Shown: in pieces, positions 3,954 through 64,000 of the stretch
Position numbering within the stretch: position 1 is the stretch's first letter
Layout: each line of letters opens with the position of its first letter
From: Candidatus Magasanikiibacteriota bacterium
GTDB taxonomy: Bacteria > Patescibacteriota > Patescibacteriia > Magasanikbacterales > UBA922
NCBI GenBank assembly: GCA_041674805.1
Contig: JBAYVA010000002.1
Coordinates: 83,234-147,233 of the forward strand
Reading direction: 5' to 3'
Length of the DNA stretch: 64,000 nt
Made by a program: the position numbers and the translations under genes
The notes under the pieces: generated by a model
Told to the model about the DNA's origin: nothing
Databases searched by the model: none
The model's input: the letters and a program-made list of their open reading frames with translations, nothing else

Positions 3954-6900
3954 TTATTTAGAAATAAATTTTTTAATCAATTTTTTTATTTTTGAAAAAA
4001 TATTTTCTCCATTACTTTTCAAAAAAAGTCCAAACAAAATAGCAGTAAAACCACCAGCTGTAGCTGTTAAATATTTTTCAACAATATCCGCGTTGTCTTG
4101 CTCTTTGGCTTTTTCTTTTTTTGTTACCAAATCTTCACTAACACCTGTTTTAATAATATCATTTTGATCACGTGGCAACAATTGATATTCTGTTTTTGTT
4201 TGATGAAGTAGTCCAGTAATACTTACTAAATTACCTTCTTCAAATATATCTTTTTTTATACCAGCTCCTCTCTTAAAATATACTTTTATTTCCTCAGTTC
4301 CATCGTCTACATACATATAAGAACTTTTTATTTCTGTAATTTCACCACTTACCAAAATAAGACTACCTTCATATTGTTCCCCCACATCTTCTAATTCCAA
4401 GACTCTACCAATTGGTAATTCACTATGTCCCAATTTTTTTATATCATTTTTTTCTTTTAATTTTATTCTAGTTTCACCAGAAGTTTCTGTAATTTCTCCC
4501 ATAACTTCTATTTTGTCTCCCCTTTTTAAATCTGGAAAATCTTTACTAAACATATAAATTTGTACACCAGCATTTTCAGAAACTATATAAAAAATTTGTG
4601 TACCCATTATACCTGGTTCTACTGCTACTGTACCTGTCACACTAATCATATCACCCAAATCTTCATCACGTATTTTTTCTAAACTAGTGTTTATAACTGC
4701 TTTCACTGAATTACTCTTACTTTTTACTATTTTAACGGATTTTACTTCTGTTATTTCTTCTACAAAATTTACCTCACCAGGGCTAATAATTTTATTCCAA
4801 ATCCAGTTACCTTCACTATTACGAACATAAGAGGCTCCTTCTATTACATCATCAAATCTTACTTCCATTATAATAGTTCCATCAGGATACAAAAGACGCA
4901 CAGAATCACTAGTGTTATTCAAAGCCAACTTTGTATCTTGGCGACCAAAGACTTTATATTCTTTAGCTTTTATCAAAGTATTAGCTCCTACAGTATAAGC
5001 TTTTGATCCACCTTCTTCATCATCAATTTTTAAACCCGAAATATCAACATCTTCTTCTGTAGGATTGTGAATTTCAATAAATTCAGTAGTATCTGAACCT
5101 ACTGGATTTGGCAAAATCTCTGAAATGTACAAAACAGATATATCACTTGTTCCAGCATAACCACCCACAAAATCTTGAGACAATTTTACACTTAAAACAA
5201 CATCCTTTTTACTTTCATTACTACCATCACTTACTGTCAAAGATACAGTATAAACTCCTTGTTGCAAAAATTTATGTTCTACACTCGCGCCATCTTCATC
5301 AGTCCCATCAGCAAAATCCCAATGAAATTTTAAATCTTTTCCTTCTGGACTAACAGTATCAGAAGCATCAAATTTCACCCATTCATTTACAGCTACTTCG
5401 GTATCTACATCAAGTGCAATAATTGGTGCTGCACTTTTACCTTCTACTATGTTTTTGCTTCCAGCAGTAATTTTACTACTCCATACCCAAGTAGCATCAT
5501 CTTGCCTCACATAACTAAAAGAATCACTAGCACTACCAGGATAACTTACACTATTTACGATTGCCCCATTTGGAGAAAATAATTTTACTTCATCTCCTCC
5601 TGTATTATTTAGAGCTATTTGTGTCATAGTTCTTTTGAAAACAATGAATTCATTTGCTTTCAATACACCTTGTTTTATTGTATATTTTTTCTTACTAGAA
5701 TCAGATAATTGCCAATCTTTCAAATCAATAGTTTCTGTACCTTTATTCCAAATTTCAATAAACTCATCATCACTATCACTACCTGGAGGATTTGGATAAA
5801 TTTCATTCAAAACTATGTTTGTTTGCAAAGAAAAAATTTCTTGTTTTTCCAAATCTTCAGCTTTTAAAGATAAAACATTTTTTTGTCCCCTAGTAATAGT
5901 ATCTGTAATTATAAAATCATAATAATCATTATCAGCATCTTGTCCATCTGTTTTTCTTATCAACGAATATGGATCACTTGCCACAGCAGCATTATCATAA
6001 GTATTACCATCATCCCAATTGCCATAAGTAACTTTATCTATTTCTTTTTTACTAGGATCTAATAATAACAAAATATCACCAGCATTATTGAGACTTCCTT
6101 TTGGTTCCTCAATTACAAAAAAACCTTTAGGCAAAATAGTCCCTGTCAAAATCGTAATTGTTTCACTACCATCTTCCAAAGACCAATCATTTAAATCAAT
6201 AATTTCTGAAGTGTTGTTATATATTTCTACGAATTCTTTTTCTCCATCACTAGGATCAGAAACCAACTCGTTTATGACCAAATCTCGTGCATTATAATTT
6301 TTTGTTGTTACTTCAGAACTAGAAGACGAACCTCCACCAGAACTAGAAACTGGAATATTTTTAATAATATTGACTTCACCTGGCGTTGGTTCTGTGGTAA
6401 TAGAAAAATCATTTTTATTATTTCCCGTGTTTTGACCATCCACGATTCTCGCCACAGAATAAGGATCACTGTGTGCAGGAGCGTTGTCTGAAATATCTTC
6501 ATCAAAAAAATCTATCCAATCACCAAAACGCACTGTGTCTATCAAATTACCAGAATTATCATACAAAAAAATACCATCACCATCATTGTTCAATTTACTA
6601 GACAAAATATTTACTCGCAAAAAACTTTTTGTTTCCAAAATATTATCCAAAACCAAAATTTTTTTTGTGCTACTACTACTTTTGTCACCTTCGTGCACTT
6701 CCCAATCTTTCAAATCAATAGTAGAGGTAGAATTATTATATATTTCTACCCATTCATTTTCACCAGCCACAGGATCACTTACAAATTCATTAATAACTAT
6801 TTCATAATTAGGAATAGTATTTGTCGTGGTAGTAGTACTTTCAAAATTTTCTACTATACTAAAGTTAAAAATGTCACTTGCAAAATCATTTTTATCATCT

Positions 6901-7697
6901 ATAACTTTTAATTCAAGACTAAAGTTGCCAATATCAGAAAAAATATATGAAAAAAAAGAACTAGTTGATAAAAGTATATTATCAAACAACCAATTATACT
7001 CTACTATTTGGCCATCACTATCACTAGAAGTACTACCATCAAAATCTACAGCTTTTGATTTTTGAAAAATGTTTCCACTTGTAACAATTTTGGCAACAGG
7101 TTTTTGATTTTGAATATCATTATTATCTAAAGACCAATAATTTTTTTGTCCTACCGAATTATTGTCTGGATGTTCTTGCCAATTATCAATATTATTTATT
7201 GGCTGAAATACATCCATTCTTTCCAAAGAATGATTATTTTGGATGGCTTTATAAACAAAATTTTCTATGAAACTATCATCTTTTTTTAAACCTATTTCTT
7301 CTCCACCCTTGTTCAAAGTTGTCCAAGAACTGTCCAAAATTAAAGAAGAAAAATTTGGATATCTCTCAAAAAAATTCAAATCATTTTGAGTAATTACAGC
7401 GTATCCTTTTGGAGCTAAAATAAAAGTTTGAAACAAACTTTTTTCACTAATATTTAAACTATGATTAGTATCTGCTTCCCAAAATTTCCAGCCAGTCAAA
7501 TCCATACTTTCATCACCTTTGTTATAAATTTCTATCCACTGAAAACCACTTTCAGCACAACCAGTAGGACAAATTTCTGTAATCACCACATCATTATCAG
7601 AACCAAAAACAAAATTTTTAAATAAAAAAACACTCAATATAAGTGCTAAAAAAAACAAACTAAATTTTCTTAATTTAATAAAAAAAATTTTAATCAT
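3954..7697 (-). CDS. Giant extracellular protein (1247 aa) with N-terminal signal/TM, about five lamin-tail-domain (LTD) repeats, a PKD domain, tandem C-terminal OB-fold-like domains, and a C-terminal TM anchor with a basic tail
   Basis: LTD-type repeats: NEFVSDPVAGENEWVEIYNNSTSTIDLKDW, VINELVSDPSDGEKEFVEIYN, LNEIYPNPPGSDSDDEFIEIWN, ISEILPNPVGSDTTEFIEIHN. A PKD-like segment: KFDASDTVSPEGKDLKFHWDFADGTDEDG...YTVSLTVSDGS. The C-terminus has an OB-like pair (VTGTVAVEPGIMGTQIFYIVSENAGVQIY and SLILVSGEITEIKSS) followed by FTAILFGLFL and KKLIKKFISK. Confidence 0.7.
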   Translation of the reverse strand: MIKIFFIKLRKFSLFFLALILSVFLFKNFVFGSDNDVVITEICPTGCAESGFQWIEIYNKGDESMDLTGWKFWEADTNHSLNISEKSLFQTFILAPKGYAVITQNDLNFFERYPNFSSLILDSSWTTLNKGGEEIGLKKDDSFIENFVYKAIQNNHSLERMDVFQPINNIDNWQEHPDNNSVGQKNYWSLDNNDIQNQKPVAKIVTSGNIFQKSKAVDFDGSTSSDSDGQIVEYNWLFDNILLSTSSFFSYIFSDIGNFSLELKVIDDKNDFASDIFNFSIVENFESTTTTTNTIPNYEIVINEFVSDPVAGENEWVEIYNNSTSTIDLKDWEVHEGDKSSSSTKKILVLDNILETKSFLRVNILSSKLNNDGDGIFLYDNSGNLIDTVRFGDWIDFFDEDISDNAPAHSDPYSVARIVDGQNTGNNKNDFSITTEPTPGEVNIIKNIPVSSSGGGSSSSSEVTTKNYNARDLVINELVSDPSDGEKEFVEIYNNTSEIIDLNDWSLEDGSETITILTGTILPKGFFVIEEPKGSLNNAGDILLLLDPSKKEIDKVTYGNWDDGNTYDNAAVASDPYSLIRKTDGQDADNDYYDFIITDTITRGQKNVLSLKAEDLEKQEIFSLQTNIVLNEIYPNPPGSDSDDEFIEIWNKGTETIDLKDWQLSDSSKKKYTIKQGVLKANEFIVFKRTMTQIALNNTGGDEVKLFSPNGAIVNSVSYPGSASDSFSYVRQDDATWVWSSKITAGSKNIVEGKSAAPIIALDVDTEVAVNEWVKFDASDTVSPEGKDLKFHWDFADGTDEDGASVEHKFLQQGVYTVSLTVSDGSNESKKDVVLSVKLSQDFVGGYAGTSDISVLYISEILPNPVGSDTTEFIEIHNPTEEDVDISGLKIDDEEGGSKAYTVGANTLIKAKEYKVFGRQDTKLALNNTSDSVRLLYPDGTIIMEVRFDDVIEGASYVRNSEGNWIWNKIISPGEVNFVEEITEVKSVKIVKSKSNSVKAVINTSLEKIRDEDLGDMISVTGTVAVEPGIMGTQIFYIVSENAGVQIYMFSKDFPDLKRGDKIEVMGEITETSGETRIKLKEKNDIKKLGHSELPIGRVLELEDVGEQYEGSLILVSGEITEIKSSYMYVDDGTEEIKVYFKRGAGIKKDIFEEGNLVSITGLLHQTKTEYQLLPRDQNDIIKTGVSEDLVTKKEKAKEQDNADIVEKYLTATAGGFTAILFGLFLKSNGENIFSKIKKLIKKFISK

Positions 7698-13468: not shown

Positions 13469-13909
13469 TTAGAATATAAGTTTGTAAGTAAAACCTTCAT
13501 TCCATTGAGGGTTATTCCATTTCATAAAACCTACTTTTTCACACAGTTTTTGCATAGGATAGTTTTCAAAAGATGTTTCAGTAACAATCCCTATAGCTCC
13601 TCTATTTTTTGAATGTTCAATACATTTATCAATCAAACATTGTCCCATTCCAAATTTTTGAAACATTGAATCAACTAGTATCTCGCGAATAAAAAAGAAA
13701 TTATCTTCCCACCAATCTCTATCAATAGAACAAAAAGCCACAAATTTATCATTTTTTTTAGCCAATAAATATAAACTATCTTTTAGAACAAAATTTTTCT
13801 TGAGTAATTTAATTGTGCTTTTATCAAATATATAATTAAAAGATTTTTTACCCTCTAAAAGTTCAATTTCTTTTTCATTCTTTATTTCAGAAATAATAAT
13901 ATCATCCAT
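13469..13909 (-). CDS. GNAT-family N-acetyltransferase
   Basis: 146 aa with a central acetyl-CoA-binding-like core (IREILVDSMFQKFGMGQCLIDKCIEHSK). Confidence 0.5.
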   Translation of the reverse strand: MDDIIISEIKNEKEIELLEGKKSFNYIFDKSTIKLLKKNFVLKDSLYLLAKKNDKFVAFCSIDRDWWEDNFFFIREILVDSMFQKFGMGQCLIDKCIEHSKNRGAIGIVTETSFENYPMQKLCEKVGFMKWNNPQWNEGFTYKLIF

Positions 13910-14122
13910 AAAATAAAAATAATTTTATTTAATTTTCAAATATAATATTGAATTTTAGATGATGTAATCTTTTTTATTACTTTGGAAAATAATTTTTTCT
14001 AGTTTTTAGCAAATTGAATTTAATTACAAGATAATTAATCATTTCAAATCTAAAAAAAATATCAACTAAATTATTATAAACAAAACAAAAAACAAATTAA
14101 TAATTTTATTTTATAAATAAAA

Positions 14123-15250
14123 TTATTTTTTAATAGGCATAACGATATACAAGTAATTGTCTTTTTCTTTTGGTCTAAAAATACAAGGAGCATCAGCACT
14201 ATTTACACCAAATTCAATGTTTTCACCTTCCATGTGTGCTAAACCATCCAACACATAGCTGTGGTTTAATAAAATGGAATTTTCTTCACCAATTACTTCA
14301 GCATCAACTTCAGAAGTATGTTCTCCAGCTTGAGTACTGGAAGAAGAAACTCCTACATTTTTTTTGCTTGGACTAAGCTCAAAAGAAACAGCATTGATAC
14401 CACCTGACGTAAACAAACTCGCTGCTTTGATTTTGTTGACCATAACACTTAGCGGAAAAGCAGCTGTTGTTTTAAAATTGTTTGGAATAATTTGTGTATA
14501 ATCTGGATAACGGCCTTCAATCAAACGACTAGTCATTTCAAAATTTCCATAACGAATAGCTATTTGATTATCACTTACCCAAACACGAACAATATCTTCA
14601 CCGCCATGACTTTTGGCAATTGTCAAAAGACGATTTATTTCATAAGCTACGCGTGCTGGTACAATACAGTGCACATTTTGAATTTCACCTTGTTTAATTT
14701 TTATTTTAGCTTCTGCCAAACGATAAGAATCTGTTGCTGCTAATACTAATCCATCATATTTTTCTGAAAAAAATGAAAAATAAATACCTGAAAATTCTGG
14801 TCTTACTTCGTTTTTGGAAACAGCTATAATAACTTTGCCAATAGCTTCTTTCAAATCATCAACTTGAACAACATAAGAATTTTTTTCTTCCACTTCTGGT
14901 AAAATTGGATAATCTTCATCTGTTGATCCTTTGATTTTAGTGCTAGAATTACCTGAAGTTATGATTAATTCATTGCCTTTTTGGTCTATTTCTACTTGTT
15001 CGCTTGTCAATAACTTAACATAATCTGCCAAAGTTTTTGCTGGAACTGTAAAATTTCCAGTAGTTTCTACTTTGGCTCTAATTTGTGTTTTTACTGCAAT
15101 TTCTAAGTTAGTACTGCTAATTTCAATACCTGAATCATTGGCTTTGATAAGTACGTTACTCAAAATTGGTAAGTTTGTATGTTTACTAGCTAAGGAACTC
15201 ACAAGACTCAAGGAATATTCTAAGTTTTCTTTTGTACATGTGAATTTCAT
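14123..15250 (-). CDS. dnaN: DNA polymerase III beta sliding clamp
   Basis: 375 aa. N-terminus MKFTCTKENL...LPILSNVLIKA is typical of DnaN, and the gene is immediately downstream of dnaA. Confidence 0.85.
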   Translation of the reverse strand: MKFTCTKENLEYSLSLVSSLASKHTNLPILSNVLIKANDSGIEISSTNLEIAVKTQIRAKVETTGNFTVPAKTLADYVKLLTSEQVEIDQKGNELIITSGNSSTKIKGSTDEDYPILPEVEEKNSYVVQVDDLKEAIGKVIIAVSKNEVRPEFSGIYFSFFSEKYDGLVLAATDSYRLAEAKIKIKQGEIQNVHCIVPARVAYEINRLLTIAKSHGGEDIVRVWVSDNQIAIRYGNFEMTSRLIEGRYPDYTQIIPNNFKTTAAFPLSVMVNKIKAASLFTSGGINAVSFELSPSKKNVGVSSSSTQAGEHTSEVDAEVIGEENSILLNHSYVLDGLAHMEGENIEFGVNSADAPCIFRPKEKDNYLYIVMPIKK

Positions 15251-15764
15251 ATGTTTGTTGTTTTATTAGTATATATATATTTATATAACTAGTAATATAT
15301 AATAAGGCCTGTGTGTAAAGTGCGAAAGTCGTTTTTTTGTTTTGGTTGACTTATTTTTTTGTGTGGACTTCTGCGCTTAAACTGTGTTTTTAAATGTGGT
15401 ATTTCTGGTGATAACTTTTTTTTAATTTTTTTCCTGTTGATGAACTGTTGATTTGTGGATAGATTATGAACAGTCTTTTTTTAGTTATCAACTTTTTTGT
15501 TATCGAGAATTTTTTTTGTGAATTGTTTGTTATTAACTTTTTTTAAATATTATTTTTAAAGGAATAATTTTTATTAGTTTTTGTTTGTCTTGTCAGAACT
15601 CTTAGTTTGGAGTTGATAGAATGAATCTAATAAAAATATAATTTTTTGTTTGCTAATAAAACTTCTCTGTTTTTTTGTTGAGAAATTTTTCAAAAATTAT
15701 AATGATTTACAATTTTTGAAAAATCCCTCATCTTTTTTTTAAAAAGATTTTTGGGATTATTTTT
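15251..15764. promoter_or_regulatory. dnaA-dnaN intergenic region, oriC part: DnaA-box-like sites plus an AT-rich unwinding element
   Basis: TGTGGATAG at 15454-15462 and TGTGGACTT near 15362. An extremely AT-rich tract runs 15530-15600. No ORFs. Confidence 0.5.
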
Positions 15765-17150
15765 TTAAACAGCGTTGGAATATAATCTTTGTTTTATCAT
15801 TTCCAAATCTTGTTTGAGCTTTAAGTCGTTGTCTATACTTTGTAATATTTTACTGTGTGCATGCATAGCTGTAGTATGATCTCTACCACCTAGTTCATCA
15901 CCTATATTTGGATAAGAAAGTTTCAACTCTTCTCTTAGCAAATACATGATAATTTGACGTGGAAAAGCTAATTTTTTTTCACGACTTTTGCCGAGTACAT
16001 CATCGATAGAGATATCAAAATAACCAGCTACGACATTTATTATTTCACGAGGAGTTAAAGAACGTTTCATACTTTGTTCTTCAAAACTAGATAATACTTG
16101 TTTAATAGTTTCTTCAGTTGCTTCAATATTTTTTAGTTCGTGATAAGCAATAATTTTGTTGAGAGCGCCTTCTAATTCACGAATATTATTTTTAACATTT
16201 GTCGCAATAAATTGGATAAGTTTTCCTTCAATTTTGAAATCTTTTTCCTGAGCTTTTCTTTGTAGAATAGCTAAACGAGTTTCTAAGTCAGGAGGAGAAA
16301 TATCAGCAATCATACCCCATTCAAATCTACTGCGTAAGCGATCTTCTAAAGCAGGTATGGCTTTTGGTGGTCTATCACTTGTTAAAACAACTTGTTTACC
16401 TTGTTGGTGTAATTCGTTGAAAGTGTGAAAAAATTCTTCTTGTGTTTGTTCTTTGCCACCAATAAATTGAATATCATCAATCAAAAGTAAATCAACATTT
16501 CTATATCTATCTTTGAATTCTTTGGCTCTACCTTCTTTTACAGAAGAAACAAATTCATTGGTAAATTTTTCAGAACTAACGTATAAAATTTTTGTTTGAG
16601 GATTGGCCTCAAGCATAGTATGGCCAATCGCTTGTATAAGATGAGTTTTTCCCAAACCTACTCCTCCATAAATGAATAAAGGGTTGTAAGAATCTCCAGG
16701 ACGACGAGCTACGGCTTGAGCTGCAGCATGAGCAAGTTCATTACCTTTACCTACGACAAAAGTATCAAAAGTATATTTTGGATTCAAACCAAATTGCTGA
16801 ACCAAAGTATTTTTTCTTTGGTTATTGTATAAAGGGTTTGTAATAGTAGAAATTTGTGGTAACTTCTCTGACATTTTACATTCAGATTCTTTGATATTTT
16901 TTATATTTTCTACTATATAATCTACTTTTTTGATAGGTTTGCCTGTCACTCTTTCTAAGATCTTGATTATTTGAGAGTGATGCTTCTTTTCTAACCAACT
17001 CTTTGTAAAGGAGTTAGGAACACAAATATTCACTAATCCTTCTTCATAATTTGCTATTCCTGTGTTTTTGAACCATGTCGTAAATTGAGCTTTGGATAAA
17101 CTTAGCTCAAATTCGGCCAAAACAGCTTGCCAGATTTCGTGAGTGGTCAT
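15765..17150 (-). CDS. dnaA: Chromosomal replication initiator protein DnaA
   Basis: 461 aa. Walker A GGVGLGKTHL, sensor and box VII motifs, and the C-terminal DNA-binding helix (LSYPNIGDELGGRDHTTAMHA). Confidence 0.9.
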   Translation of the reverse strand: MTTHEIWQAVLAEFELSLSKAQFTTWFKNTGIANYEEGLVNICVPNSFTKSWLEKKHHSQIIKILERVTGKPIKKVDYIVENIKNIKESECKMSEKLPQISTITNPLYNNQRKNTLVQQFGLNPKYTFDTFVVGKGNELAHAAAQAVARRPGDSYNPLFIYGGVGLGKTHLIQAIGHTMLEANPQTKILYVSSEKFTNEFVSSVKEGRAKEFKDRYRNVDLLLIDDIQFIGGKEQTQEEFFHTFNELHQQGKQVVLTSDRPPKAIPALEDRLRSRFEWGMIADISPPDLETRLAILQRKAQEKDFKIEGKLIQFIATNVKNNIRELEGALNKIIAYHELKNIEATEETIKQVLSSFEEQSMKRSLTPREIINVVAGYFDISIDDVLGKSREKKLAFPRQIIMYLLREELKLSYPNIGDELGGRDHTTAMHAHSKILQSIDNDLKLKQDLEMIKQRLYSNAV

Positions 17151-17733
17151 AGATAAAGTCTTTATTTTTATGTTTTTTCATTTTATCACAGTTTGCTAAT
17201 TTAAAAAATCCTCTAAATTAAGCTAAAAGTGCATAAAGTTGTGGACAACTTGTGGATTCTGTGGATAATTTGGCTAAAATACTTTATATTTTTTATTAAA
17301 AAATTATGAACAGTTTGGAGATTTTTACTTTTTTTATTTTAGAAAAATAGATTTTTTGTTAATAGCGTTTTTTTGCTAATTTTAGTAAAAAATGAATAAA
17401 AATAGTTGATTGCTTTATTATAATAACACATCCTTCACTCGTAGCAAAAACAAAGGTCAGAAATGTTTTTTTACCAATGTTTTTGTCTAAAGGTGGATAA
17501 TTACTACGAAATAATACAATTTATACCCTATTTTTGATTTTATTAGGATTTGTAGATTCATTAATTTTGATTAATGTGGTCAATTTATTAGATTTTTGTG
17601 TTTTTTGAAGTTGAAAATTTTTTTTATGTAAGTTAGTTTTTCTTATTATTGTCTAAGTTTTTATCAATACTTGACAAAACTTTAAATTTTTTGTATTATT
17701 TAGCTACATTATTTAGTTTTGAACTTATAAGTT
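17151..17733. promoter_or_regulatory. oriC / dnaA upstream region with clustered DnaA boxes
   Basis: TGTGGACAA at 17240-17248, TGTGGATTC at 17251-17259, a perfect TGTGGATAA at 17260-17268 and GGTGGATAA at 17492-17500. The region is flanked by divergent rpmH and dnaA. Confidence 0.7.
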
Positions 17734-17913
17734 ATGGCAACAAAAAGAACATATCAGCCAAAAAAACGTAAAAGAGCAAAGACCCATGGTTTTCTAGAAA
17801 GAATGAAAACAAAAGATGGTCGTAAAGTTCTTAAGGCACGTCGTGATAAAGGCAGAAAAAAACTTACAGTAAGTGAAGAAAGAACAGGTAAAAGAACAAG
17901 AAAAACACGTTAA
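17734..17913 (+). CDS. rpmH: Ribosomal protein L34, with a C-terminal extension. It is missing from the ORF track because it is under 60 aa.
   Basis: Translation is [59 protein letters not shown]. The L34 core TYQPKKRKR...HGF...G..VL.RR is conserved and rnpA follows directly. Confidence 0.85.
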
Positions 17914-17978
17914 TTTGTCTGTTTTTAATCTAATAACCATTACTACCTCGTTTTTACGAGGTTTTTGTGTTATAATAT

Positions 17979-18362
17979 TTGTATATGTTAGCCAAAGAAT
18001 TTAGATTAAGAGGTAAAAAAGAATGGGAAGTTTTGTTTGCAGAAGGTAACTTTGCTTCGGCAAATTTTTTGACGGTCAAATTTTGGAAGATAGAAGTAAA
18101 TAAATTTCCTCGTAGAAAGTTTCAAGTATCAGATCTTAAGATAGGCTTTAGTGTTGGTTTAAAAATAAGTAAAAGTGCTGTAAAACGTAATAGTGTTAAA
18201 AGAAAAATGAGTGAAGTTGTGAGATTGTTATTAAAAGACAATAAAATTAAATCAGGTTATTTGATTGGATTCTTGGCTAAAAATAATATTTTAGATGTTG
18301 ATTACTCACAAATAGAAGCAGATATTATTAATTGTCTGAAAAAATCTAAACTATTAATCTAA
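17979..18362 (+). CDS. rnpA: RNase P protein component
   Basis: 127 aa basic protein directly downstream of rpmH, with an RnpA-like fold (KEFRLR...FSVGLKISKSAVKRNSVKR). Confidence 0.75.
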   Translation: MYMLAKEFRLRGKKEWEVLFAEGNFASANFLTVKFWKIEVNKFPRRKFQVSDLKIGFSVGLKISKSAVKRNSVKRKMSEVVRLLLKDNKIKSGYLIGFLAKNNILDVDYSQIEADIINCLKKSKLLI

Positions 18363-36043: not shown

Positions 36044-36889
36044 TCATGTTTCACATGAAACTTGATCCAAATGGCTGAAAATATTGAGTGTTTGTACAGG
36101 CTTACTTGTTTTGTATTTTTTGGTAGTACGAATATTTTTATGGCCAAGTATTTTTTGAAGTTGTTTTTCATCGATTCCCCTTTCAAGCATTTCTTTACTA
36201 AAGCTGTGTCGTAAAGATTGAAAAGTTATTTTTTTAGTTATTTTGGCACGTTTTAGGGCTTCTGTGAAAGCTTTTTCAACAGATCTGATACTTAGTTGTT
36301 TATTTTGTGGGTTTATAAAAACAAAATCATTCATTTTTTTGAAAGCGACAAATCTTTTCAATTCATTTTTTATTGTCTGAGGTAATATAGTTTCTCTATT
36401 TTCTTTAGTTGATTTGTTGTTTAGGGTAATAATGTTGTTTTCAAATTGTAAATTTTTGACTTTTATATCTATAATCTCACTTATTTTTAATCCTGAACCA
36501 TAAGATAATAAAAAAATGAGACAATGTTTTTGATTTTTGGTATTTTCTATTATTTTCTCAAATTGTTTTTTGTTCAAAGTATTTATCTTGTTTGTATTTG
36601 TTTTAAAAAAAATTATAGACACTGTTTGTTTTTTGAAATTTTTGTAATAAAATGACAAAATGTTTAAAATTAAATTTTTTGTTTGATTTGATTTTTTTTG
36701 TTGAGTTTTCAAAAATAGTTTTATTGATGTATTTTCGTCAGATATTTTTTTTTTATTTAAAAAAAATAAATATTTTTCTAAATAAAAAAGGTAGGATTTA
36801 ATAGTTGTTGGCTTATAGTTTTTTTGTAGTAAATCAGTTTTTATTTTTGATAAAATATTTTTTTCTGAAATTTTTTTTTGTTTTTTCAT
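36044..36889 (-). CDS. Tyrosine site-specific recombinase/integrase (XerC/D-like phage-integrase family)
   Basis: C-terminal catalytic region FQSLRHSFSKEMLERGIDEKQLQKILGHKNIRTTKKY, following the R...H-x-x-R...H...Y pattern. It is adjacent to a tRNA gene. Confidence 0.75.
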   Translation of the reverse strand: MKKQKKISEKNILSKIKTDLLQKNYKPTTIKSYLFYLEKYLFFLNKKKISDENTSIKLFLKTQQKKSNQTKNLILNILSFYYKNFKKQTVSIIFFKTNTNKINTLNKKQFEKIIENTKNQKHCLIFLLSYGSGLKISEIIDIKVKNLQFENNIITLNNKSTKENRETILPQTIKNELKRFVAFKKMNDFVFINPQNKQLSIRSVEKAFTEALKRAKITKKITFQSLRHSFSKEMLERGIDEKQLQKILGHKNIRTTKKYKTSKPVQTLNIFSHLDQVSCET

Positions 36890-39539: not shown

Positions 39540-40022
39540 ATGAAAATAGATTTCAAAAAACTAACAATATCTATTGTTGGTACACAACTTGCAGGTGTCT
39601 TAGGTTCGGTTTTTAATTTTGTTTCTATACCTACTTGGTATACAACTTTGAATAAACCAAGTTTCAATCCACCAAATTGGGTATTTGGACCTGTTTGGAC
39701 AATTTTGTTTTTGATGATGGGAGTTGCTGTTTATTTGGTCTGGACCAAAAAGACAATTTTTCATCAAAAAAAGAAAAAAGAAGCTTTGCAAATTTATTTA
39801 TTGCAACTTTTGTTAAATGTTTTGTGGAGTGCTTTGTTTTTTGGAATTTTGAATCCAGGTTTGGCTTTTGCTGAAATAATTGTTTTGTGGTTAGCTATTG
39901 TAATAACTATTTTCAAATTTAATAAATTTTCTACATTGGCTGCATGGTTGTTGGTACCTTATTTATTGTGGGTGAGTTTTGCTAGTATTCTGAATTTTTC
40001 GATTTGGATTTTGAATTTTTGA
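39540..40022 (+). CDS. tspO: TspO/MBR-family tryptophan-rich sensory protein
   Basis: Five-TM protein with WYTTLNKPSFNPPNWVFGPVWTILFLMMGVA. Confidence 0.8.
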   Translation: MKIDFKKLTISIVGTQLAGVLGSVFNFVSIPTWYTTLNKPSFNPPNWVFGPVWTILFLMMGVAVYLVWTKKTIFHQKKKKEALQIYLLQLLLNVLWSALFFGILNPGLAFAEIIVLWLAIVITIFKFNKFSTLAAWLLVPYLLWVSFASILNFSIWILNF

Positions 40023-40079
40023 TTTTTGACAAAATCATATTTTGTTGATAATATGTTTTTACTTTATTTGAAGTAAAAA

Positions 40080-40153
40080 GGGCCTTTAGCTCAGCTGGCT
40101 AGAGCGCTTCCATGGCATGGAAGAGGTCATGGGTTCAAGTCCCATAAGGTCCA
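40080..40153 (+). tRNA. tRNA-Ala (anticodon GGC)
   Basis: Acceptor GGGCCTT with the G3:U70 pair, D-arm GCTCAGCTGGCTAGAGC, anticodon stem CTTCC/GGAAG around loop ATGGCAT, T-arm GGGTTCAAGTCCC. Confidence 0.75.
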
Positions 40154-40170
40154 CAATTAAATAAAGCAAA

Positions 40171-40244
40171 GGGCCGTTTCCCGATTCATCGGGAGGCTAG
40201 AGTGCCCGGACGGGAGGTCGCTGGTTCGAATCCAGTAAGGTCCA
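40171..40244 (+). other. Aberrant tRNA-like element. It shares the acceptor 5' end (GGGCCGT) and the T-arm/3' end (GGTTCGAATCCAGTAAGGTCCA) with the adjacent tRNA-Ala, but the core does not fold into a canonical D/anticodon cloverleaf. It may be a pseudo-tRNA or an att remnant.
   Basis: Hand folding fails to produce a 7-nt anticodon loop. The 3' 24 nt are nearly identical to those of tRNA-Ala(GGC). Confidence 0.45.
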
Positions 40245-40318
40245 CAAAAAAACTTTCTATTTTATAGAGAGTTTTTTGTTTTTTGATTACATGTTATACT
40301 ATAAAAATAATATAATAA

Positions 40319-41185
40319 TTGAAATATATGCGACCACAAAATTTTAAAACAAAAATATTTCTTGATAGTGGTAATCCAGTTGAAACCAGAGAAGCAATTA
40401 AACTTCTTGGTTTTCTTGATGGACAAACTACCAATCCAAGTCTTATTGCCAAAAATCCAGAATTGCAAGCCAAAATTTTTGCAGGAGAAAAATTAACTTC
40501 TGAAGAAGTAAATGCTTTTTATAAAAGTGTAATAGAAGAAATTCGTGCTTTGATTCCAGAAGGTTCTATTTCTATAGAAGTCTATGCAGACAAAGAAACC
40601 AGTTTAGAAAAAATTTTGATACAAGCAAGAGAAATGAATAGTTGGATAAAAAATGCTCATATTAAGTTGCCTATTACAAAAACAGGTTTGGAAGCTGAAA
40701 AAATTTTAGTTGAAGAAAATATCAAAGTGAATATGACTCTTTGTTTTTCACAAGAGCAAGCAGCGGCTGTATATAATATGAGTAATGGCGCAAAAAAAGG
40801 GGATGTATTTGTTTCTCCTTTTATTGGTAGACTTGATGATAAGGGACAAAATGGTATGAGTTTGATTGCTAATATCCAAAAAATGTACGAAAAAGGGGAT
40901 GGACATGTTGAATTGTTGGCGGCTAGTGTCAGAACTTATGAACATTTTATGGCGTGTTTGGCTTTGAAAGTAGATATTATTACAGCTCCTTTAAAAATTT
41001 TGGAAGAATGGTGGAAAAGAGATTTGGAGTTACCTCAAACAGATTTTGTGTATAACAAAAAAGATTTAGTAAATTTGGATTTTGAGAATGTAGATTTATC
41101 AAAAGCTGAATATAATATTCAACATGAATTGACAAATATTGGTTTGGAAAAATTTGTAAGTGATTGGAAGACATTGATTACATAG
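40319..41185 (+). CDS. tal: Transaldolase / fructose-6-phosphate-aldolase family (class I aldolase TIM barrel)
   Basis: DSGNPVETREA...GQTTNPSLIAK, a TalB/Fsa-type motif. 288 aa. Confidence 0.7.
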   Translation: MKYMRPQNFKTKIFLDSGNPVETREAIKLLGFLDGQTTNPSLIAKNPELQAKIFAGEKLTSEEVNAFYKSVIEEIRALIPEGSISIEVYADKETSLEKILIQAREMNSWIKNAHIKLPITKTGLEAEKILVEENIKVNMTLCFSQEQAAAVYNMSNGAKKGDVFVSPFIGRLDDKGQNGMSLIANIQKMYEKGDGHVELLAASVRTYEHFMACLALKVDIITAPLKILEEWWKRDLELPQTDFVYNKKDLVNLDFENVDLSKAEYNIQHELTNIGLEKFVSDWKTLIT

Positions 41186-63756: not shown

Positions 63757-63952
63757 TAAAGTAAAAAATAATAATATAAATAAAACGTTTTATTAAATAA
63801 TAGAACGTTTTTAATTACAAATTTCTAATGTCAAAACTTTTTGTAATTAATAATTTGAAATTGATTTGATATTTGGATTTTTTAATTTGAAGTTTGTTTC
63901 TTAGTAAGAAAATTTATATATTAAAAAATAGACTTAGTAGTCTATTTTTTGT

Positions 63953-64000
63953 ACCGCGGGCGGGACTTGAACCCGCACGACATTGCTGCCAAGGGATTTT
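63953..64000 (-). tRNA. Partial tRNA (3' portion; T-arm and acceptor 3' strand), truncated by the window end. Identity undetermined.
   Basis: Minus strand reads ...GCGGGTTCAAGTCCCGCCCGCGGTACA, a T-stem/loop with an acceptor arm. Confidence 0.5.

Follow-up and report, generated by a model that had tools for sequence, protein, structure and literature searches.

The spacer that separates the genes for TspO (39540-40022) and transaldolase (40328-41185) in the DNA stretch analysed here (the window; 64,000 nt, 31% G+C overall, from a groundwater member of Candidatus Magasanikbacteria in the candidate phyla radiation) contains a 74-nt tRNA-Ala-like element (40171-40244, plus strand), which reads GGGCCGTTTCCCGATTCATCGGGAGGCTAGAGTGCCCGGACGGGAGGTCGCTGGTTCGAATCCAGTAAGGTCCA. 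The transaldolase has 100% identity to an NCBI protein of Candidatus Magasanikbacteria. The reading that we favour, and hold with about even confidence, is that this element is a tandem paralogue of tRNA-Ala(GGC) which has been remodelled into the gene of a co-transcribed, non-decoding and probably alanine-accepting tRNA-like RNA. Judged from its sequence, the element cannot present an anticodon, and it is probably a working non-decoding tRNA mimic, preserved by a related species, rather than junk. Moreover, it looks like one of a small set of tandem tRNA paralogues, derived from tRNA-Ala(GGC) and tRNA-Gly(GCC), that have a mini-hairpin in common. Among the options listed in a first-pass annotation, which was made from the letters of the stretch, a tRNA-like RNA fits best, the element being derived from tRNA-Ala and having no decoding cloverleaf.

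Structure and transcription unit of the element

The ends of the element are those of a tRNA-Ala. The 5' acceptor strand GGGCCGT (40171-40177, plus strand, as are all parts of the element) matches the acceptor of the neighbouring tRNA-Ala(GGC) (40080-40153) at 6/7 positions and keeps G3, which pairs with U70, in agreement with the first-pass annotation. The 3' acceptor strand AAGGTCC and discriminator A73 (40237-40244) are identical to those of the neighbour (8/8), and CCA is not encoded. Positions 8-9 (TT), which include U8, separate the acceptor from hairpin 1 (40180-40193; CCCGA-TTCA-TCGGG), which stands in place of tRNA positions ~9-17, i.e. the 5' D stem and most of the D loop. Downstream of a linker, the base A, alignment to tRNA-Ala(GGC) genes of the clade identifies a remnant of the D loop and 3' D stem, GGCTAGAGTG (40195-40204), with equivalents of G18, G19, A21 and G26. 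Hairpin 2 (40205-40214; CCCGGACGGG, 10 nt) takes the place of the whole anticodon stem-loop (tRNA nt 27-43) and is followed by a variable-loop remnant, AGGTC (40215-40219), recognised by the same alignment, and by a canonical T arm with a 5-bp stem (40220-40236; GCTGG-TTCGAAT-CCAGT), denoted B-type below. The total length is still 74 nt despite the two arm replacements, and G3:U70, A73, U8, the D-loop GG and the T loop are tRNA-Ala-like. A 7-bp acceptor, a 5-bp T stem and a TTCRANY T loop are present, with a single mismatch, G6.A67, in the acceptor of the window copy. No other GC-rich orphan T arm occurs in the window besides that of a tRNA cut by the window end (63950-64000, minus strand; 3' part with T arm GCGGG-TTCAAGT-CCCGC), which is severed there and hence uncalled.

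The element lies between the promoter and the terminator of tRNA-Ala and is therefore inside its transcription unit. A sigma-70-type promoter (40026-40054, plus strand; TTGACA, 17 nt, TAATAT, with TG; 10/12 matches), which would drive both genes, precedes the normal tRNA-Ala(GGC) (40080-40153, plus strand). The latter is called by ARAGORN, scores 64.3 bits on the Rfam tRNA model, has A-type arms (see below) and does not encode CCA. An AT-rich spacer of 17 nt (40154-40170, plus strand; CAATTAAATAAAGCAAA) separates it from the element, and an intrinsic terminator (40247-40285, plus strand; arms 40247-40260 and 40264-40277, then a T run) ends the operon. This terminator, missed by a consensus terminator scan because G-C pairs are few in its stem, is conserved in L001, L007, L020, L040, L041, L005 and L008, and the promoter layout recurs in L020, L040, L007 and L001 (L-numbers designate contigs of relatives; the syntenic ones were fetched via the adjacent transaldolase protein). 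Two further assemblies of this organism, L022 and L023, have the element letter for letter, and it is therefore not an assembly artefact.

Tests for a decoding tRNA and for known classes

The first-pass annotation had found that the core does not fold into D and anticodon arms, and dedicated searches bear this out. ARAGORN makes no call on the element at its default or 80% threshold, nor in its intron, mitochondrial (armless) and transfer-messenger RNA (tmRNA) modes. Rfam gives no match to tRNA (RF00005) or tmRNA on 40171-40244 even at E<=10 (331-nt search), the sole signal being a noise match to the permuted tmRNA (E=6.4) across the tRNA-element junction. At ARAGORN thresholds of 60-70% the window copy yields only a reverse-strand pseudogene call, and the related copies in L040 and L021 yield 'tRNA-???' calls with a 2-nt 'anticodon'. 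The element has neither a D arm nor a 5-bp anticodon stem with a 7-nt loop, hairpin 2 being only 10 nt long. Furthermore, deletion of hairpin 1 or hairpin 2 regains no 5' D-stem strand and no anticodon arm, and the hairpins are therefore not introns.

Several other classes were considered and rejected. A dispersed palindromic repeat, of the repetitive extragenic palindrome (REP) or miniature inverted-repeat transposable element-like type, does not fit: the hairpin motif occurs once in the window, and the only two CCCG..CGGG palindromes in the 64 kb are both within the element (0.25 expected per window). A link to IS200 or REP-associated tyrosine transposases was likewise discarded, the Y1 transposase gene of L001-L003 being flanked by unrelated hairpins and the window having no such gene. 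This IS200-like gene lies between the PMSR and TspO genes (113-565 in L001; 1819-2175 in L002 and L003), and its flanks are the near-identical hairpins CCCTGTGATGTCC..GGACTCACAGGG. A bacterial Y RNA (YrlA) was rejected for want of an Rfam match and of a Ro/TROVE gene among the 39 largest open reading frames (ORFs) of the window, which were compared with Pfam and NCBIfam in the scan for partner genes described below. As to a phage or viral origin, five scans of viral contigs gave chance matches in GC-rich contigs or none, and BLAST against phage genomes matched generic tRNA T arms only. No description of such elements in Patescibacteria was found in the literature searched, and we could not find a description of the recurring class there or in Rfam.

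Conservation of the element in a second species

The TspO-transaldolase spacer of L040, whose transaldolase is 77% identical to that of the window, contains a promoter, tRNA-Ala(GGC), a 16-nt spacer (CAATTAACAAAACAAA), a full-length 74-nt element (396-469) and the same terminator. The two elements are identical at 61/74 positions (82%), versus 34/67 (51%) at the four-fold sites of the adjacent transaldolase gene, where 36% is expected at random (83% A+T). Relative to four-fold-site identity, the binomial P is ~2e-8 for the whole element and ~3e-6 for the element-specific core alone (nt 8-49), the part that no tRNA gene could refresh. Between promoter and tRNA, the 5' leaders of the window and L040 are too divergent to be aligned easily. 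All 13 differences between the two copies agree with the RNA structure: hairpin loops account for three (positions 15, 18 and 39), unpaired or wobble positions for three more (27, 33 and 49), the T loop for two and acceptor position 6 for one, and the remaining four make up two compensatory T-stem pairs (51:65 and 52:64; C-G to U-A and U-A to G-C). The acceptor of the L040 copy is a flawless 7-bp stem with G3:U70, and in both copies the features that mark a substrate of alanyl-tRNA synthetase (AlaRS), G3:U70 in the acceptor helix and A73, are present. In the two-copy alignment 97.5% of paired cells can pair, versus 27-55% when the 3' partners are slid. The G+C content of the element is 62% in a genome of 31%, which is not what decay would produce. 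From its sequence, then, the element does not resemble a pseudogene in free decay.

The tRNA-Ala(GGC) genes of the clade come in two arm types, which differ at 6-7 T-arm positions and at acceptor pair 6:67: type A has ATGGG-TTCAAGT-CCCAT and the acceptor GGGCCTT/AAGGTCC, and type B has GCTGG-TTCRAAT-CCAGT and the acceptor GGGCCGT/ACGGTCC. Positional orthologues carry different types (window 40080-40153, L001 1219-1292 and L040 307-379). In the window the tRNA is A-type and the T arm of the element is B-type, matching the L001 tRNA-Ala(GGC) at 17/17 positions and its own neighbour at only 10/17. Accordingly, the first-pass statement that the 3' part is almost identical to the neighbouring tRNA is correct for the acceptor strand and discriminator and incorrect for the T arm. 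In L040 the arrangement is reversed, with a B-type tRNA and an element whose T arm matches the window tRNA at 16/17 positions. The element-type core thus stands on both arm backgrounds, a sign that tandem copies have recombined. No conversion donor for the B-type arm of the element was found in the window, tRNA-Ala(UGC) at 2026-2098 being different, and four-fold sites of the window and L001 are 40% identical, which is the random level. The intact T arm is therefore best explained by selection or recent transfer and not by local homogenisation.

Glycine-type elements

A covariance model built from the two Ala-type elements picked up further sequences that ARAGORN does not call. L021 has two tandem copies (1833-1900 and 1936-2003; GCGGTAGTAGTTCAGTTGGCTAGAAACG-CCCGGCCGGG-AGGTT-GCCAGTTTGAATCTGGT-CTGCCGC-T) before a real tRNA-Gly(GCC). 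On the minus strand of L014 (~2604-2664; also in L015), a real tRNA-Gly(GCC) is preceded by a copy that has CCCGGCCGGG and whose T arm is broken. A third locus, on the minus strand of L040 (1617-1676), has a copy with CCCGTCCGGG in which the T arm and 3' acceptor are intact and the 5' half is decayed. These are tandem copies derived from tRNA-Gly(GCC), and in all of them exactly nt 27-43 are swapped for CCCG-nn-CGGG. The eight stem letters of CCCGnnCGGG are invariant and the central two bases vary (GA, TA, GC, TC). The L021 copies reach 40 bits on the Rfam tRNA model, in permissive mode only, because their D arm is intact. The transaldolases of the Magasanikbacteria that have members of this class are only 61-77% identical to that of the window.

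B-type tRNA-Ala and tRNA-Gly(GCC) have the flanks of the anticodon arm in common (TCAGTTGGCTAGA on the left; AGGTCGC and GGTTCGAATCC on the right), so that the hairpin module could have moved between Ala and Gly genes by gene conversion. Two of the three Gly-type loci adjoin GIY-YIG genes or pseudogenes: an intact gene in L040 (1673-1936, minus strand) and one that looks frameshifted in L021 (~1516-1740). On the minus strand of L040 the order is tRNA-Gly 3' end, GIY-YIG gene, Gly-type element and terminator, which may indicate a homing-endonuclease cassette in a tRNA cluster.

Such elements matter for annotation as well. Ala-type elements are skipped by tRNA finders, and Gly-type elements are, depending on filter settings, missed by Infernal or scored above the tRNA threshold (40 bits), which can distort tRNA gene counts in such genomes. 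That one fixed mini-hairpin takes the place of the anticodon arm in members of two tRNA families suggests either a particular partner or a particular process acting on the DNA.

Proposed function

RNase P, 3' processing enzymes and the CCA-adding enzyme recognise the acceptor/T-arm half of tRNA, and AlaRS needs only an acceptor helix with G3:U70 and charges minihelices. The element should therefore be processed to a mature RNA and charged with alanine, but would be of no use in decoding. In the proposed pathway, RNase P, whose protein subunit gene rnpA is in the window (17985-18362), would cut the primary transcript, the 3' end would be trimmed, CCA would be added, and AlaRS would charge the RNA with alanine. 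The predicted product is an alanyl-tRNA mimic (a glycyl-tRNA mimic in relatives) that the ribosome could not use for decoding. It might donate its amino acid to a tRNA-dependent transferase, or it might titrate, or act as a decoy for, proteins that bind the acceptor and T arm. Fem-type transferases and alanyl-phosphatidylglycerol synthase accept acceptor-arm substrates; moreover, alanine and glycine are the classical cases of charging of anticodon-less RNA helices and the residues usually passed from tRNA to peptidoglycan bridges. Against this background, a role as non-ribosomal aminoacyl donor or decoy would be mechanistically coherent.

A wider proposal is that Magasanikbacteria encode a dedicated class of chargeable, anticodon-less Ala and Gly tRNA mimics in which a fixed CCCGnnCGGG hairpin replaces the anticodon arm and acts as a handle for a partner protein; the mimics would carry alanine or glycine for a non-ribosomal reaction (peptidoglycan cross-bridge formation or lipid aminoacylation) or act as decoys against tRNA-targeting factors. 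We consider this rather unlikely as it stands. If the element is functional, the bacterium would keep the acceptor half of tRNA function alone as a separate gene, and a new small-RNA family would be added to the poorly understood candidate phyla radiation.

Distribution in relatives and alternative explanations

A number of observations weigh against a conserved function, the first being the patchy distribution of the element. It is absent from sister species with the same locus: the spacer holds only a tRNA-Ala identical to that of the window, followed by the same terminator, in L006/L007 and L041, and the same two features plus an extra post-terminator segment in L020. In L001-L004, L016 and L017 just a 30-nt 5' piece of the element is kept (GGGCCTTTTCCCGACTCGTCGGGAGGCTAG), followed after 10 nt by an intact tRNA-Ala(GGC); hairpin 1 is retained in this fragment (loop CTCG), as it is in L040. 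The tRNA-Ala locus is wholly missing from the TspO-transaldolase site in L005, L008-L011, L018 and L021. Only two full-length Ala-type copies are known (window and L040), because of which covariation statistics are weak; a shuffle control on two sequences is uninformative, as 132/500 shuffles reach the observed value. In addition, the compensatory T-stem changes may reflect inheritance of the two older tRNA arm types and not selection within the element. The acceptor stem of the window copy has the G6.A67 mismatch, and the minimum-energy fold (-33.2 kcal/mol, with the tRNA-like fold at -25.7 kcal/mol) draws G6 and U7 away from the acceptor into a hairpin 1 lengthened to 8-9 bp; in this alternative fold G6 pairs with C27 in the window, and both positions are U in L040. 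Two of the Gly-type elements, those of L014 and L040, are clearly degenerate on one side. Finally, no candidate partner gene was found among the 39 largest ORFs of the window: a Fem-type transferase, an aminoacyl-lipid synthase, a reverse transcriptase, a Ro (TROVE) protein and SmpB were all missing from these ORFs, which show ordinary housekeeping genes near dnaA. The result on reverse transcriptase (Pfam) also speaks against the priming RNA suggested in the first-pass annotation.

Scans of genome collections and metagenomes returned the L001-type locus only. Their patterns had a fixed GGCTAG and would miss an L040-like GGTTAG; moreover, the window's own contig, though it matches the pattern, was not returned by the metagenome scan, and absence from the collections is therefore weak evidence.

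The strongest alternative is that the element is a relic with no function: tRNA-Ala was duplicated in tandem, and short GC palindromes put the duplicate out of action in the course of recombination or repair associated with mobile DNA, e.g. with free-standing GIY-YIG homing endonucleases of the kind found in tRNA clusters. The duplicate would persist by hitch-hiking in the tRNA operon and by module exchange between tandem copies, perhaps transcribed but inert. We regard such a history as possible, with a probability clearly below that of the favoured reading. It would account for the patchy distribution with fragments (the 5' piece of the L001 type, the broken T arm in L014 and the decayed 5' half of the Gly-type copy in L040), for the GIY-YIG genes or pseudogenes beside two of three Gly-type loci, and for the G6.A67 mismatch. 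Consistent with it, the swap of tRNA and element arms between the window and L040 bespeaks frequent recombination among copies, and the TspO-transaldolase intergenic region is a rearrangement hot spot. What a relic does not explain is an identity of 82% versus 51% at neutral sites with substitutions that avoid the stems, nor the retention of GC-rich hairpins in an AT-rich genome. Furthermore, the window lacks a conversion donor for the T arm of the element, neither Ala-type copy adjoins a GIY-YIG gene, and the palindromes are not a dispersed repeat, both of those in the window being inside the element. The first-pass suggestion of a pseudogene is thus right in that decoding has been lost, yet the element is conserved far above neutral in a second species and belongs to a recurring class. 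Even if it were only a relic, it would illustrate clearly how tandem tRNA genes swap modules.

Improbable, in our estimate, is an explanation at the DNA level, in which a regulator or recombinase would bind TCCCGAY-TC-RTCGGGA and CCCGnnCGGG as dyad-symmetric sites within the region that controls tRNA-Ala and transaldolase, the tRNA-like context being incidental. Hairpin 1 is indeed a 7-2-7 palindrome, in which positions 15 and 18 change together from T..A to C..G; this keeps the dyad symmetry, whereas the corresponding RNA loop would be an impossible 2 nt. Stem letters are invariant rather than covarying, and a similar palindrome occurs without tRNA context between the terminator and the transaldolase gene of L020 and L040. 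On the other hand, the palindromes of both full-length copies are placed precisely where arms begin and end in a tRNA scaffold that is intact elsewhere, and conservation extends to the acceptor and T arms; the keeping of the whole scaffold would go unexplained. In addition, a C-to-T change in the downstream hairpin of L040 preserves a G.U pair only in plus-strand RNA, hairpin 2 of the window is not a perfect palindrome, and the half-site spacing differs between the two modules.

The downstream palindrome belongs to a segment that follows the terminator of the tRNA operon and is homologous in L020 (~800-860) and L040 (~520-580); the window does not have it. Its hairpin is very like hairpin 1 (AATCCCGATTTATCGGGACAAACA in L020 and AATCCTGACTAGTCGGGGCAAACA in L040), and loop positions 1 and 4 show the same T..A versus C..G split as the element. 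An inverted, decayed copy of the element in L020 was considered for this segment and rejected: L040 has both the element and the same downstream hairpin region, which is therefore a separate conserved segment.

An attachment-site (att) remnant of an integrative element that targeted tRNA-Ala, one of the options in the first-pass annotation, is very improbable. Partial tRNA duplicates beside a tRNA gene are typical of att sites, and a tyrosine recombinase (integrase) gene (36044-36889) lies 3.3 kb upstream. However, the two copies are 17 nt apart with no island in between, the duplicate covers the full length of the tRNA and not just a 3' segment, and the integrase gene is also present in L006/L007, which are without the element; searches of viral contigs and phage genomes gave only generic T arms or chance matches. 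Least probable of all is an unusual decoding tRNA (intron-bearing, as had been proposed, or armless) or a miniature tmRNA-like rescue RNA: the G3:U70 pair and anticodon-less body do recall the tRNA-like domain of tmRNA, and 74 nt is the length of a tRNA, but no 7-nt anticodon loop can be drawn, removal of the hairpins restores no arm, there is neither an mRNA-like reading frame nor a pseudoknot, and ARAGORN (intron, mitochondrial and tmRNA modes) and Rfam gave no tRNA or tmRNA match.

Other features of the window and of related loci

In L008-L011 (~1090-1400) and L018 (~1100-1450) the tRNA-Ala locus upstream of the transaldolase gene is replaced by 300-400 nt of GC-rich, non-coding sequence rich in inverted repeats. 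It has no Rfam match even at E<=0.5, and it could be an undescribed structured RNA or a mobile-element remnant. In L006 and L007 the TspO gene is split into ORFs of 52 and 100 aa (2284-2763), probably by a frameshift or as a pseudogene. The window also contains the neighbourhood of a replication origin (13469-18362), with dnaN (14123-15250), dnaA (15765-17150) and rnpA (17985-18362), as well as a gene for a small GNAT acetyltransferase (13469-13909). A protein of 1247 aa, encoded on the minus strand at 3954-7697, combines five lamin-tail domains with PKD domains and, at its C terminus, a nucleic-acid-binding domain of the OB-fold type; probably it acts at the cell surface, as a nuclease or by binding DNA or RNA, and is of a kind typical of these bacteria.

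Comparison with known systems

tRNA pseudogenes and degenerate tandem duplicates are like the element in that they arise by duplication of a neighbouring tRNA, have lost the anticodon and are not called by tRNA finders. The element differs in being 82% conserved versus 51% at neutral sites and GC-rich in an AT-rich genome, and in having two precise arm replacements rather than scattered mutations, with the same replacement in a second tRNA family. Allo-tRNAs are also non-canonical tRNA-like genes found in tandem with tRNAs and have a suspected link to mobile DNA; however, their acceptor/T geometry is 8/4 or 9/3 and they keep anticodon arms, whereas the element is 7/5 and has no anticodon arm.

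Among small RNAs with a tRNA fold and roles outside decoding, bacterial YrlA (PMC4201824) and eukaryotic mascRNA offer partial parallels. In mascRNA the anticodon arm is shortened and the RNA is excised by RNase P, but it is eukaryotic and its sequence is unrelated to that of the element. YrlA has closed ends, binds Ro and is encoded beside rsr (PMC4201824), unlike the element, which has neither an Rfam match nor a TROVE gene among the 39 ORFs scanned. The tRNA-like domain of tmRNA has alanine identity through G3:U70, an acceptor and a T arm and no anticodon, as does the element; the latter lacks the mRNA-like domain, the pseudoknots and the long helix that replaces the anticodon stem, and measures 74 nt versus ~350 nt (PMC3985003).

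A further parallel is offered by Staphylococcus, where non-proteinogenic tRNA-Gly isoacceptors feed FemXAB-dependent synthesis of peptidoglycan bridges (PMC7826273). There, too, extra paralogues exist beside the normal ones; they receive their amino acid from the ordinary synthetase but are withheld from translation, and glycine and alanine, the amino acids concerned, are classical bridge residues (PMC7826273). The staphylococcal tRNAs retain the cloverleaf and anticodon and escape EF-Tu through changes in the T arm (PMC7826273), whereas the element, with no Fem-type gene seen in the window, has a normal T arm and no anticodon arm. If functional, it would take the separation of aminoacylation and decoding further than the cell-wall tRNAs of staphylococci.

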